DNA of 18,596 nt from an archaeon (lineage in GTDB: Archaea; Iainarchaeota; Iainarchaeia; Iainarchaeales; JAAZKV01), in NCBI GenBank assembly GCA_036170245.1, contig JAVHOV010000014.1:1-18596 (forward strand), given 5' to 3'. Both the position numbers and the translations under genes were made by a program. Positions within the stretch are counted from its first letter, which is position 1; each line of letters opens with the position of its first letter. Under the pieces are notes generated by a model. That model did not search any database. It was not told where the DNA came from and was given only the letters and a program-made list of their open reading frames with translations. Below, in pieces: positions 10,673 to 18,596 of this stretch.

Positions 10673-11506
10673 ATGTTTCGCTTCATGTTAGCTCCAATTG
10701 AGGATTACTCAGATTCTGCACTTAGAACTCTTTGTTTTACACATGGGGCAGATTTAACTTTCACTGAAATGGCTAGACTTGAAGGGATTGTGAGAAATAA
10801 TAAACCAACTCTTGCAAAAACTCTTTGCCTTGATTCTACTCCAGTAGAACTTCAGTTACTTGCTTCAAATGAAGAGCAATTAGAAAAGTACTTAACTAAT
10901 TTTAAAACTTTTGAAGGATTTAAGGGATTCAACTTGAACATGAGTTGCCCTAGTGCTGATATAATGAAAGCTGGCAGAGGGGCTGGAATGGTTAAGCGTT
11001 TAACCAAAGCCCAGAATTTGATTAAAATTATAAAAAAACACAATTACCCTGTTTCAATAAAAATGAGATTAGGAATGAATGCGAGTGAACAAAATTACAA
11101 AGTGTACTTGCGGTTAATTGAAGGAACTGATGCGGATTATTATATAGTTCACCCAAAACATGGGATGCAAAGAAGCGATGAGCCTGTACAAGGAAATGAG
11201 ATTTATGTAGAATGCGTTGAGGCAGCTAAGAAGAATGGAAAAATTATTATTGCAAATGGTGATTTGAATTCTGCTACAAGAATTAGAGAAGTTCAAAAAA
11301 TCGGAGTTGGAGGAGTAATGATTGCACGAGGAGTATTAAGGAACCCTGCAATTTTTGATTCTTTAAAAAACGAACTTAACTTTAATTCCCCAAACAAAAA
11401 ACTTCCTACAATTAAGGAACTAAGAAAAGAATACCTTGATTTAGCAAATTTATTTTCTTCCCCTCCAAAGTACAAAGATAATTTACTAAAATGGATGATG
11501 CAGTAA
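10673..11506 (+). CDS. dus: tRNA-dihydrouridine synthase family protein (copy 2)
   Basis: LAPI, TEM, NLNMSCP, SIKMRLG, IANGDL, GVMIARGVLRNP; clear paralog of 647..1453. Confidence 0.9.
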   Translation: MFRFMLAPIEDYSDSALRTLCFTHGADLTFTEMARLEGIVRNNKPTLAKTLCLDSTPVELQLLASNEEQLEKYLTNFKTFEGFKGFNLNMSCPSADIMKAGRGAGMVKRLTKAQNLIKIIKKHNYPVSIKMRLGMNASEQNYKVYLRLIEGTDADYYIVHPKHGMQRSDEPVQGNEIYVECVEAAKKNGKIIIANGDLNSATRIREVQKIGVGGVMIARGVLRNPAIFDSLKNELNFNSPNKKLPTIKELRKEYLDLANLFSSPPKYKDNLLKWMMQ

Positions 11507-14876: not shown

Positions 14877-16217
14877 TTGACCTTTCAAAAAAGTGTTTCT
14901 TTTTGGCAAGCAGTAACCTATGGAGTAGGAGTGATAGTAGGAACAGGAATTTATACCCTAATTGGAATTGGAGCGGGAATCAGCGGAAACCTATTATGGC
15001 TCTCCTTTATAGTTGCAGGAATTATAGCTTCCCTGACAGCCTTATCTTATGCTAAATTATCATCTATATTCACAAAAGAAAGCGCAGAAAGCTTCTATGC
15101 CCAAAAGGCTTTTGGGAGCAAAAAAATTTCTTTCATGGTAGGATACTTGTCCATAATTGTGTGGGTTTTTTCAGGTGCAACAGTTGCATGGGGACTTACC
15201 ACATACACAAAAGCGTTCATCCCAATTGATCCGCTTTTTATTGCACTCATTTCAATACTTGTTCTTTCACTCACAAACTTTTTTGGAATCCAAACAAGTG
15301 TACGTGTGAATAACATTCTTACAATAATAACTATTCTTGGTTTGGGATTAATAATTCTCTTTGGACTCCCCCGTATAGGACAAGTTAATCTTTTTTTAGG
15401 AATTGACGGAACAACCCTCTTTGAAAACTCTTTTTCTTTAGGAAATAGTGTTTTCTCTGCAGCAGCTTTGATCTTTTTTGCATTTTTAGGCTTTGAGAGC
15501 TTAGCAAATATCTCTGAAGAGACAAGAAACCCTAAAAAAAATATCCCTAAAGCAATTCTTTTTTCATTATTTTTTGTAACTATTCTTTATGTTTTAATTG
15601 CACTAGTTTCTGTTAGCACAGTAGCTCCAATGGATTTGCATAATGCAACCATTTCTTCATCCACAAGTGCTGGACCTCTTGCTCTTGTCGCAGAGCAAGT
15701 AATGTTTCCAGGAGCAGGACTAATCCTAACTTTGATTGCTTTTTGTGCAATTGGAAGTACTTTAATTGTCATATTAAATGTTTCAAGCAGAATATTTTAT
15801 GGACTCAGCAAGCAAGATCTGGCTCCAAAAGTATTTGAATATATTAATCCAAAAACAAATACTCCCTCAATAGCAATTCTTACAACAGCCCTCATTACGT
15901 GCTTGTTTGCTTTAATTGGAAACATAGAACTCCTTGGATTTATATGCACTATGAGTGTATTTTTATTATTTGGAATAATAAATATTGCACTAATTTTTAT
16001 TCAAAAAGAATTCACTCCATTTGGACGCGCTAAACCCTTAATCAACAAAGATACTATTATCCCTCTTCTTGGAGCAGGATTTTGCTTTTTCATGCTGCTC
16101 ACTCAGTACTGGGATACAGTACAGATATTTGGAATAAATTTCCCTCTAATCTCGCTTTTAGTAATTGCACTTATAATAGGAAGAATATTATACTTTGTCC
16201 TAATTGACAGAAAATAA
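14877..16217 (+). CDS. APC-superfamily amino acid permease
   Basis: GVGVIVGTGIY (TM1), ALSYAKLSS, FFAFLGFESLANISEETRNPKKNIPKAI (TM6), SRIFYGLS, TNTPSIAI; GGTGA SD at 14866-14870. Confidence 0.92.
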   Translation: MTFQKSVSFWQAVTYGVGVIVGTGIYTLIGIGAGISGNLLWLSFIVAGIIASLTALSYAKLSSIFTKESAESFYAQKAFGSKKISFMVGYLSIIVWVFSGATVAWGLTTYTKAFIPIDPLFIALISILVLSLTNFFGIQTSVRVNNILTIITILGLGLIILFGLPRIGQVNLFLGIDGTTLFENSFSLGNSVFSAAALIFFAFLGFESLANISEETRNPKKNIPKAILFSLFFVTILYVLIALVSVSTVAPMDLHNATISSSTSAGPLALVAEQVMFPGAGLILTLIAFCAIGSTLIVILNVSSRIFYGLSKQDLAPKVFEYINPKTNTPSIAILTTALITCLFALIGNIELLGFICTMSVFLLFGIINIALIFIQKEFTPFGRAKPLINKDTIIPLLGAGFCFFMLLTQYWDTVQIFGINFPLISLLVIALIIGRILYFVLIDRK

Positions 16218-16364: not shown

Positions 16365-17138
16365 TTAGGCGAACTCTATTACATCCCCATTTCTTATGTT
16401 TCCAGCTCCACCTCGAGTGAATATAGTTCCGTTTTCGCCTTCCCTAATTTCACTTACACTAGCAAAGCTTTGCTTCAAATCAGATACTCTAATATTATTT
16501 TTCCCTATTTGGGCAGTCATTCTTTTAGTAAGTTTTCCGCATCTTACAATTCCTGAAATCATTGTTTCTGCACCACCAGCATAAACCCCCGTTACTTCAA
16601 ACTGAGCATAACCGCTACTAACAGCAGGAGCTTCTTTTTCTTCCAAACCCATTTTTTGTCTTGCAGTTCTTGAGAAACGAGGAACATACCCTTCATCCAA
16701 TTTCTTTGAAGCTACATCCAGTTCATCGTCACTTTCATTTGGCTCTTCAGATTCATTTTGTTTATTGAACAATATTTTTCCAAAAGGAGATTTGGATTTA
16801 ACAATAGACTTGTTCTCAATTGATTCTACCCCGAGTTCAGGTTCGTAATCATACGGCTCAGAGGGAGTACTCTCAGTTATTTCCTTTACTTCCCTATTAA
16901 AACTAGCCTTATCTTTTTCGTAAGCATTTCTCAATTTATCAAAAGGACTTTCATCTTCCTTATCATCTTTAATTACAAATTTTATTTTTTTCAAATCCTT
17001 CTTCTCTTGTTTTTTTGCGTGCAATGGAACACAAACACCTAAATCAACTTTCGGTTTTATTATTGCCTCAGTTTGAGTTTCAGTAGTTTTATCTTTAACA
17101 TAACCAAATTTTTTCATCAATGATTCAAAGAAATCCAT
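16365..17138 (-). CDS. Hypothetical protein: charged low-complexity N-terminal region plus C-terminal EF-Tu domain II-like beta-barrel
   Basis: C-terminus FEVTGVY...MISGIVRCGKL...IRVSDLKQ...VSEIREGENGTI...IRNGDVIEF matches the translation-factor domain II pattern; no P-loop; AGGGGG SD before ATG 17138. Confidence 0.7.
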   Translation of the reverse strand: MDFFESLMKKFGYVKDKTTETQTEAIIKPKVDLGVCVPLHAKKQEKKDLKKIKFVIKDDKEDESPFDKLRNAYEKDKASFNREVKEITESTPSEPYDYEPELGVESIENKSIVKSKSPFGKILFNKQNESEEPNESDDELDVASKKLDEGYVPRFSRTARQKMGLEEKEAPAVSSGYAQFEVTGVYAGGAETMISGIVRCGKLTKRMTAQIGKNNIRVSDLKQSFASVSEIREGENGTIFTRGGAGNIRNGDVIEFA

Positions 17139-17197
17139 CGTTTTTTCCCCTTTTAGAATAGTAATAATAAGAGAAGAAAAGAATAAAAACAAGATTC

Positions 17198-17227
17198 AAA
17201 AGGTTTTTTCTTTTAGAAAAACCTTTT
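17198..17227. terminator. 11-bp inverted repeat downstream of hisIE
   Basis: AAAAGGTTTTT (17198-17208) / AAAAACCTTTT (17217-17227), with adjacent T/A tracts. Confidence 0.45.
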
Positions 17228-17249
17228 TTTAAATCCTGTTTAAATAAAA

Positions 17250-17825
17250 TCACTTATTTCTTCTTTCATTTTCTTTTTCAATATCACTAATTGCTACCCC
17301 TTCTTTTGCCATTATTACAAAAAGGAAGTAAATCAAATCCGAGCATTCCCAAATTAAGTTTTCCTTATCTTTTGCAGTTATTACTTCTGCAGCTTCTTCA
17401 ATTAGTTTGCGTTTTAGGAGCAACTCATTGTTGAAGAGTTTTTTTGTGTATGAACCTTCAGGAGCACTTTTTAATCTTAAAACAATTTTATCATAAAGTG
17501 CATTAAGGCCAAATTTTTCTTTAATCCCAAAGCAACTGTACTCCCCAGTATGACATGCACAAGTCCCTTTTTGCTTCACAACGAAAAGCAAAGTATCATT
17601 GTCGCAATCTTTTTTAATTTCAACAATTTCCTGAATATTTCCTGAAGTTGCTCCTTTTTGAAACACCCCTTTCCTGCTTCTGCTATAGCTCCAAACAAAT
17701 CCAGTTTTAATAGTCTTTTCTAAACTTTCTCTGCTTGAGTAAACCAAAGAAAGCACTGTTTTGTTCTGCTCCTGAATTATAGTAGGAACTAAATTATTCA
17801 TTTTTTCAAAATCAACTTCAATCAT
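17250..17825 (-). CDS. hisIE: Bifunctional phosphoribosyl-AMP cyclohydrolase / phosphoribosyl-ATP pyrophosphatase
   Basis: YSRSR...KGATSGNIQ, DCDNDTLL, ACHTGEYSCF (HisI); GSYTKKLF...KLIEEAAEVI...WECSDLIYFLFV (HisE). ATGA overlap with the hisG stop and GGGGTGA SD. Confidence 0.95.
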   Translation of the reverse strand: MIEVDFEKMNNLVPTIIQEQNKTVLSLVYSSRESLEKTIKTGFVWSYSRSRKGVFQKGATSGNIQEIVEIKKDCDNDTLLFVVKQKGTCACHTGEYSCFGIKEKFGLNALYDKIVLRLKSAPEGSYTKKLFNNELLLKRKLIEEAAEVITAKDKENLIWECSDLIYFLFVIMAKEGVAISDIEKENERRNK

Positions 17826-18481
17826 TTTCTCACCCCCAAGAGAACTATGTCAGATTCCATTATTCTCTCAATTACCCCTAAGCCCGCTTCTCTTGCAGAT
17901 TTACCTGAATATACAATATCAATCACCAAATCACACAACCCCATTTGGTAAGCTTCTTCAGTACACCCATTCAAATACATTTTGTCAAAGGAAAATCCTT
18001 TTTGCTCAATTTCTTTTAGGAACTTTTCTGACAAGTACTTGTACTTTGAATTTATTGCAACTTTTGGCTTAGAAGATATGTCCAAGAAAAGCTGCTGCTC
18101 GCAATAAAAGCTTCGGCTTTTATTGACGCCCTGCAAACCTTTGGTTTGTATGGTTTCGGGCTTAGCAAAACCTTGTTTTGCACAAGCCAGGTTTTTAAGT
18201 TTTTTTCCAATTGGCCCTAAGAGACACAGAGTAGGTTTATTAAAAATTGCAGTTTGATCAACCCAAGGAATTTTTTCAATTACCCCAATTTGAGAAATTA
18301 CATTTTTTAGTTTGTACTCTTTGTACAAATCTTCCCCAGTGAGCCCAATTACTTTTTTTCCTTTTTGAATCATTTCTTCTACAAAAACAGGCACATCTTC
18401 AGCTCGAACTATTACTCTCTCATTAGGTAACCCTTCAAGTTCTTGGCGGTAAAGCTCAAGCCCAGAGTTTTTAGGAAGCAC
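17822..18481 (-). CDS. hisG: ATP phosphoribosyltransferase, short form without C-terminal regulatory domain; has an in-frame insertion and an uncertain 5' end
   Basis: LPKNSG, VRAEDVP, GLTGEDL, VAINSKY, LNGCTE, CDLVIDIVYSGKSAREAGL (PRPP-binding motif); overlaps the hisIE start. Confidence 0.88.
   Translation of the reverse strand: MLPKNSGLELYRQELEGLPNERVIVRAEDVPVFVEEMIQKGKKVIGLTGEDLYKEYKLKNVISQIGVIEKIPWVDQTAIFNKPTLCLLGPIGKKLKNLACAKQGFAKPETIQTKGLQGVNKSRSFYCEQQLFLDISSKPKVAINSKYKYLSEKFLKEIEQKGFSFDKMYLNGCTEEAYQMGLCDLVIDIVYSGKSAREAGLGVIERIMESDIVLLGVRK
18086..18196. repeat. In-frame multi-hairpin palindromic insertion within hisG
   Basis: Three hairpins within imperfect terminal inverted repeats; 49/111 G+C by hand count, above the flanking sequence; encodes a ~37-aa segment that does not look like HisG. 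Confidence 0.75.
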
Positions 18482-18503
18482 AAGTAAAGTACTTGGAAGT
18501 ATT

Positions 18504-18581
18504 TTAGAAATAGTATCGCTGTTGATGAACTAATGGTTCACTTGCAAGAATTGCTGTTGTATTCATTTGTTTCATTTCCAT
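18504..18581 (-). other. SD-led 25-codon ORF (MEMKQMNTTAILASEPLVHQQRYYF), out of frame with hisG: candidate true 5' part of hisG or leader
   Basis: GGTGGTGA at 18594-18587, ATG 18581, TAA 18506-18504; offset by one base from the hisG frame. Confidence 0.55.
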
Positions 18582-18596
18582 TTCATTCACCACCAA

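Follow-up and report, generated by a model that had tools for sequence, protein, structure and literature searches.

In the archaeal genome analysed here, the ATP phosphoribosyltransferase HisG is probably produced through a starvation-triggered +1 ribosomal frameshift, which would take place at the only histidine codon of a short leader upstream of hisG. The probability of this reading, which is drawn from comparative sequence analysis, is put at roughly three in four. Such a frameshift switch would sense amino-acid shortage in a manner not described before. The window, i.e., the whole stretch of DNA analysed (18,596 nt), is the entire contig C14 of an 867 kb genome that is 86% complete.

The leader and the start-less hisG

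The leader open reading frame (ORF) is encoded on the minus strand (18581–18504), comprises 25 codons and a TAA stop, and lies in the −1 frame relative to hisG. Its ATG sits 15 nt inside the contig end and is preceded by the Shine-Dalgarno (SD) sequence GGTGGTGA (18587–18594, minus strand), which ends 5 nt 5' of the ATG and pairs with the 3' end of the 16S rRNA of the same genome at −10.8 kcal/mol. Among the genes of this genome, the spacing between SD and start peaks at about 4 to 7 nt, with one of 136 at 10 nt and none at 11 nt. Codon 19 is the sole histidine codon of the leader (CAT, 18527–18525), and the junction on the minus strand reads CCA TTA GTT CAT CAA in the leader frame. The hisG frame is shut directly 5' of the shift site by a TAG (18532–18530, minus strand), as is also seen in 6 of the 62 site-bearing loci described below, and is then open from TTC ATC AAC AGC (18529) until the stop at 17824–17822. 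All of these sequence statements, from the leader coordinates and the single histidine codon to the closed and reopened hisG frame, had been made in the preliminary description, and they hold.

The proposed P-site codon is GTT (Val, 18528–18530, minus strand), from which a +1 slip lands on TTC (18529–18527). The proposed hungry A-site codon is the CAT (His, 18525–18527, minus strand), and the first hisG-frame codon after the shift would be ATC (18526–18524). Further upstream, the leader contains AAGTGA (18538–18543, minus strand), a weak SD-like motif with a pairing energy of −3.9 kcal/mol, with 7 nt between its GTGA and the proposed P-site codon, for which a stimulatory or pausing role is inferred. 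The complete cassette spans less than 30 nt. The junction is no assembly error, as all four public contigs that span positions 17200–18596 match without a single difference (all from one study, which may be the source of this very sequence, so not independent), and both metagenome relatives L193 and L194 (72% identity) have an identical junction. Leader length and frame are also the same in these two relatives. A sequence error, which had been named beforehand as an event that would undo the proposal, is countered by the same four matching contigs and by the relatives that keep the junction.

The hisG reading frame (17822–18529, minus strand) matches PF01634 with an E value of 6.8e-17 and appears to encode a divergent short-form ATP phosphoribosyltransferase, while its TIGR00070 score lies below the cut-off. 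The product matches HisG structures and shows a two-domain fold from which the C-terminal regulatory domain is absent; it is a predicted short-form HisG. The frame contains no histidine codons at this locus. It has no usable start codon of its own: the only ATG, GTG or TTG of the hisG frame before the conserved LPKN motif is the GTG at 18481, one codon upstream of the motif, and no SD pairing was found for it (+0.6 kcal/mol versus −10.8 kcal/mol for the leader ATG). In the predicted HisG structure (pLDDT 89.5), a helix (residues 3–7) and a strand (residues 14–18) begin upstream of this GTG. According to the model, a start at GTG 18481 would remove the confident helix and part of strand 1.

The gene hisIE (17250–17825, minus strand) follows, with matches to PF01502 and PF01503 and a score above the cut-off of NF002747, and its ATG overlaps the hisG stop. 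It is the last his gene at this locus; the next gene is unrelated, and the same is the case in G009 and L193. This next gene is a 275-aa ORF (16365–17192, minus strand) without a match in Pfam or NCBIfam, and look-alikes are located after the his genes of relatives. It is faced by an APC-type amino acid permease (14877–16217, plus strand). Elsewhere in the window, two similar ORFs (422–1453 and 10673–11506) presumably encode tRNA-dihydrouridine synthases, judging from their motifs.

A peculiarity of this hisG is an in-frame, hairpin-rich insertion (18083–18187, minus strand) of about 102 to 105 nt, corresponding to a net gain of 34 codons, which is unique to this genome among all aligned relatives. 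It consists of three hairpins (z −4.84) flanked by the near-direct repeats CCTGG and CTTGG, and the structure model places it in a low-confidence loop. The insertion looks like a small mobile element and is not part of the switch. A partial second copy is present at C26:16053–16101, and a weak one on C10.

Conservation of the site

A hisG gene was found in 17 of 61 relatives and, with alignment, in 55 of the 196 genomes of the order, 34 of which carry a strong short-form hisG. A scan of a contig database gave 53 hisG loci, many of them titled Woesearchaeota, Pacearchaeota, Nanoarchaeia or Aenigmatarchaeota. The 130 hisG loci were reduced to 70 distinct genes, of which 68 are informative; L011 (contig end) and L123 (N gap) were left out. 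In L123, the site is visible by eye upstream of the N gap. The site was defined as N(TT/CC/TC)-CA(T/C) in the open stretch before LPKN.

In the −1 frame, this site is present in 62 of the 68 informative loci, whereas about 3.8 are expected from background, and the other two frames have 3/68 and 5/68; related genomes share kinship and are not independent, so that the counts do not amount to a formal test. With these numbers, the worry that the histidine codon had come to lie at the junction by chance, raised in the preliminary description, is answered. The site-bearing loci span the whole HisG tree (built without L011 and L130) at a median identity of 45%, and within the window's family, the 14 informative genomes all carry the site. 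One of the 62 loci, L052, is ambiguous in that it has an in-frame ATG as well; it is excluded from the counts based on 61 loci. All six short-form loci that lack the site have an in-frame ATG, and since they lie scattered on the tree, repeated loss of the site is suggested.

Long-form hisG genes of the same order served as controls. They comprise 19 loci, one of which (L142) has no anchor, while L131 was not used because its 5' end is missing. None of the 18 remaining controls has the site, and all 18 have an in-frame ATG or GTG, which lies 6 to 15 codons before the LPKN motif. Loci L132–L150 show that other genomes of the order, three of the window's family among them, have a second hisG, which is of the long form and starts in the ordinary way.

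It had also been proposed to look for a conserved, SD-led out-of-frame upstream ORF with a histidine codon, and such an ORF is indeed found: 52 site-bearing loci have a strong SD-ATG within 150 nt, this ATG is in the −1 frame for 44 of them, and no stop intervenes between it and the histidine codon in any of the 44. Judged from this comparison of loci, a conserved recoding signal at hisG is real and widespread. The original proposal of a +1 shift at GUU-CAU with a special role of the histidine codon is thereby strongly supported, while its second part, feedback control of histidine synthesis, is doubtful for this genome, as discussed with the pathway context.

Anatomy of the site

Over the 62 loci, the P-site codon is ATT (29), CTT (19), GCC (7), GTT (4), CTC (2) or TTT (1), and the corresponding +1 slip codons are TTC (53), CCC (7) and TCC (2). 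If a G34 anticodon is assumed, the slip keeps positions 2 and 3 paired in 60 of the 62 loci, with the two TCC loci being poorer. The re-pairing of GUU with UUC had been described as only partial, and this is correct (two of three positions); yet the prfB-like CUU-C is found at 19 of the 62 related sites. Among the tRNAs of these loci are G34 species for Thr, Arg and His. The incomplete set of 20 tRNAs found in this genome does not include a tRNA-Val(GAC), which the slip here would need.

The histidine codon is CAT in 56 loci and CAC in 6, and the base that follows is C (32), T (26) or A (4). A swap between CAT and CAC is silent in the leader frame yet alters a HisG residue; the six CAC loci are scattered on the tree. 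In the window's family, CAT-C is invariant (13/13 loci), as is the second G of AAGTGA (13/13). The GTGA-like motif is conserved in its nucleotides, while the encoded residues vary, and the gap between its end and the P codon is 7 nt in the window's family and 4 nt in 48 other loci. The leader stop follows 2 to 28 codons after the histidine codon; in 48 of 61 loci, this position coincides with LPKN or lies beyond it.

Eight loci (L064, L097, L098, L099, L103, L106, L110 and L125) contain two histidine sites in tandem, and tandem sites were recognised by eye in three more (L127, L128 and L130). In the tandem loci, the first leader begins with MNPTF and has no strong SD, the middle frame extends over 18 to 77 codons, and the second frame has no ATG within 40 codons. 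In L126, L107, L081 and L129, an extra site of the form GTGA/GTGG-NNN-NTT-CAY is located just before the leader's own SD, and it lies downstream of tRNA-His where a tRNA-His was found.

The codon CAT is not rare in this genome (1078 versus 1255 CAC), and GTG is the only anticodon of tRNA-His seen in the loci of relatives. Folding of the junction is no better than that of shuffled sequences (z −0.08 and 0.29), and a terminator scan of the junction returned no terminator-like sites. The bodies of site-bearing HisG proteins contain no histidine in 11,629 codons. This was considered as specific evidence and then dropped, because the long-form controls are also poor in histidine (7 in 5,148 codons).

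Pathway context

In the window's family, the gene order is tRNA-His(GTG), hisS, leader/hisG and hisIE, followed by varied subsets of his genes (L111–L124, L193 and L194). After hisIE, all other his genes are present in G015, which thus has a full his operon behind the site, and HAD-hisC-hisD in G018, while none follow in this genome, G009 or L193. Neither hisS nor tRNA-His was found in this genome; both probably lie beyond the contig end. Among the 34 genomes with a short-form hisG, hisD occurs in 20 and hisB in 15.

The genes hisA/F, hisB and hisD were not found in this genome at its completeness of 86%, with one PF00977 match being weak and covering 60 residues, and LeuC, IlvB and TrpA were likewise not found in it. 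Because these enzymes were not found, the feedback loop through the gated enzymes may be interrupted in this genome. The missing genes, and an operon that ends after hisIE, make the feedback control claimed in the preliminary description doubtful for this organism. Closed feedback in relatives is plausible.

Cassettes on cimA and trpB2

A scan of this genome for the same layout with any A-site codon gave 5 matches, and a relaxed scan gave 18. Four matches with a glycine codon (C7, C13, C22 and C36) have a TTG in frame behind the GTGA and were rejected as ordinary TTG starts. An isoleucine-codon cassette (GTGA, GCC ATT) is located at about 3330–3356 of C11 (L151:1331–1357), in front of a start-less cimA-like gene whose best model, NF042433, scores below its cut-off. 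Among the best 30 cimA matches, NCC-AT(T/C) is present in 21 of 22 family loci; it is absent from all 8 loci of other families, the majority of which carry an ordinary ATG upstream. A tryptophan-codon cassette (GTGA, GCC TGG) belongs to trpB2 and is located at about 5601–5639 of C23 (L183). The tryptophan site occurs in five of eight informative family loci, L191 being uninformative, and the other three have an in-frame ATG. In one of these, L187, a leader-like N-terminus is fused in frame to trpB2.

Both cassettes are less clean than that of hisG, since each gene has an internal in-frame ATG, one codon before DTT in cimA and seven codons before the anchor in trpB2; starts at these codons would cut conserved residues. 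In addition, a G34 anticodon would pair less well after the cimA slip from NCC to CCA, and the site can also be read in another register, with AUU in the P site. The aspartokinase of this genome has an ordinary in-frame ATG. A tRNA-Trp was found in L186, L190 and L192, and a tRNA-like gene just upstream of trpB2 in this genome is called as Lys(TTT); it may be a decayed copy of tRNA-Trp. The occurrence of three unrelated genes that each carry the codon of their own product at the junction is the strongest argument for sensing.

Proposed mechanism and alternatives

According to the proposed mechanism, ribosomes would initiate at 18581 and read 18 leader codons. When histidine is plentiful, CAU would be decoded and translation would stop six codons later at the TAA, so that no HisG is made. 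When histidine is short, the A site would remain empty at CAU and the P-site tRNA would slip from GUU to UUC, a movement that would keep positions 2 and 3 paired, a G34 anticodon being assumed. Weak pairing of AAGUGA with the 16S rRNA possibly holds the slipping ribosome. AUC would be decoded next, yielding a HisG with an 18-residue leader extension whose synthesis would need no histidine, and the shifted translation would terminate on the hisIE start. The cassette would be modular, as a swap of the A-site codon would retune it to isoleucine on cimA and to tryptophan on trpB2. A wider proposal is that small-genome archaea use a modular frameshift code, built around a slippery codon and a single cognate codon in a short leader that also carries a GTGA motif. 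The first enzyme of a pathway would then be made only when charged tRNA for the amino acid in question is scarce, and tandem sites would serve where a sharper response is required. This wider proposal is likely, if slightly less so than the switch at hisG.

The least improbable alternative, although unlikely, is non-AUG initiation at the AUC (18526), with AAGUGA as the ribosome-binding site and a leader that occludes or exposes the start, perhaps in a histidine-dependent manner. The codon in question is ATC or ATT in 54 of the 62 loci and ATC in 13/13 family loci, and GTGA does pair with the anti-SD. However, it is ACT or ACA in six loci, and its distance from the end of the GTGA is 11 nt (here) or 8 nt, whereas starts in this genome peak at a spacing of 4 to 7 nt. 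The equivalent codons are TTC, TTT or TCA in cimA and GGC or GGA in trpB2, which are not starts, and the tandem sites would be left unexplained. A constitutive +1 frameshift of fixed ratio that keeps HisG low, with CAU as a slow codon and not a sensor, is rated as a little more improbable. It agrees with this that the site persists even in genomes that yielded no match for the greater part of the pathway; such a throttle would not predict, however, that three unrelated genes of a single genome each have the A-site codon of their own pathway's product (His, Ile and Trp). Other kinds of recoding are very unlikely, whether the ribosome slips by −2, makes a short hop, or terminates at the leader stop and then restarts. 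The exact slip is not fixed by sequence alone, and AUU and AUA codons are situated near the leader stop here, but −2 routes are blocked in six loci, this one included, by a stop that closes the hisG frame directly before the site. A restart at the leader stop would give a cut enzyme where that stop lies at or beyond LPKN, as it does in 48/61 loci.

Highly improbable is a correction of the mRNA before translation, be it by intron splicing, polymerase slippage or editing. Archaea splice introns at bulge-helix-bulge (BHB) motifs, which lends splicing a general plausibility. Splicing had been listed at the outset as an event that would refute the frameshift, but no frame-restoring relaxed BHB was found in this genome, and such motifs occur in 10 of 61 loci versus 8 of 61 in a control window. 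Polymerase slippage is opposed by the longest homopolymer near the site, which measures 2 to 4 nt in 62/62 loci, and correction in general by a junction fold that does not surpass its shuffles (z −0.08). Equally remote is the explanation that translation of hisG begins at GTG 18481, or that the gene is a remnant in decay or the product of an assembly error, with the leader being incidental. This GTG does lie in the hisG frame, in many non-family loci the GTGA motif supplies an in-frame GTG 5 to 6 codons before LPKN, and an eroded operon with a recent insertion in hisG would be compatible with decay. On the other hand, GTG 18481 has no SD, its use would drop the confident helix and part of strand 1, and control starts lie 6 to 15 codons before the motif. 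In addition, 13 of the 62 site-bearing loci have no in-frame ATG, GTG or TTG at least 3 codons before LPKN, while error and decay are opposed by the four matching contigs and by the conserved sequence in relatives. These last possibilities are already largely refuted, and the histidine-dependent +1 frameshift remains the preferred reading.

If the modular code exists, attenuation would have a counterpart that works through the ribosome alone, and hungry-codon frameshifting would for the first time be seen in a natural, selected role. The cassette would also explain amino-acid sensing in archaea that have neither attenuators nor many regulators. A practical consequence is that gene callers mis-start these enzymes.

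Comparison with known systems

A literature search, outside of which most subscription papers lay, found no description of a histidine-codon shift on hisG. The main text of PMC3711429 does not mention hisG or histidine, and the excerpted text of a preprint (bioRxiv 10.64898/2026.05.13.725050) mentions only prfB-type shifts. Hungry-codon frameshifting as such is established, and a 2016 review states in its excerpted text that there is no known example of starvation-induced shifting that yields a functional, starvation-specific protein (PMC5009743). In the excerpts of a 2021 review, one archaeal chromosomal frameshift, of the −1 type, is listed in addition to a probable viral +1 shift (PMC8211752). 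A conserved +1 cassette with a product-matched A-site codon, if true, would fill both gaps, that of functional starvation shifting and that of archaeal chromosomal frameshifts.

Of the characterised +1 systems, the autoregulatory shift of bacterial prfB (release factor 2) resembles the hisG locus: a short ORF occupies the zero frame, the functional product comes from the +1 frame, and an SD-like motif lies upstream of the shift site. Another common feature is the slip of a single tRNA on a pyrimidine codon when the A site is filled slowly, as described in the excerpted text of PMC5009743. The CUU-U site of prfB is not found; it is replaced by GUU-C here and by CUU-C in 19 of 62 loci, and CUU-U is impossible before a histidine codon. 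Instead of the stop codon (UGA) in the A site of prfB, CAT or CAC occupies this position in 62/62 loci (by search definition), with the leader stop 2 to 28 codons further on. The internal SD of prfB is located 3 nt before the shift codon according to the same excerpts (PMC5009743), whereas the GTGA-like motif ends 7 nt (family) or 4 nt (other loci) before it. Moreover, the hisG cassette differs from prfB in that its P codon varies, it is archaeal, and it recurs on several genes with different codons.

The CUU-AGG-C site of the yeast element Ty1 offers a second parallel, with a +1 slip that occurs when a sense codon in the A site is decoded slowly and that needs no 3' structure, as stated in the excerpts of PMC5009743; none was found at the hisG junction either. 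As in Ty1, a re-pairable P-site codon is followed by a sense A-site codon. Ty1 relies on a constitutively scarce tRNA (PMC5009743, excerpted text), whereas CAT is not rare in this genome.

The locus also invites comparison with bacterial attenuation. Attenuators of the type of enterobacterial hisL have a leader with a run of cognate codons and hairpins that act as terminator and antiterminator, and the regulated gene has its own start. The hisG cassette shares with hisL a short leader with a cognate codon before the first biosynthetic gene, and both would sense charged tRNA. Unlike hisL, the leader has one histidine in 25 codons and no run, and no terminator or alternative hairpins were found at the junction (z −0.08 and 0.29). 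It also overlaps a start-less gene, so that the output would be a fused protein and not continued transcription.

A further archaeal case is haloarchaeal leuA2 (HVO_1510), for which slippage from an out-of-frame ATG under leucine shortage has been speculated, with an in-frame CTG start being offered as an alternative (PMC8305020, excerpted text). In these excerpts, the speculation is confined to one gene, names no shift site, direction or cognate codon, and does not include hisG (PMC8305020). The cassette could also account for the start problem of leuA2. Finally, the proposed switch is similar to antizyme, which likewise uses a metabolite-responsive +1 shift in which sensor and effector are combined, as described in the excerpted texts of both reviews (PMC5009743, PMC8211752).
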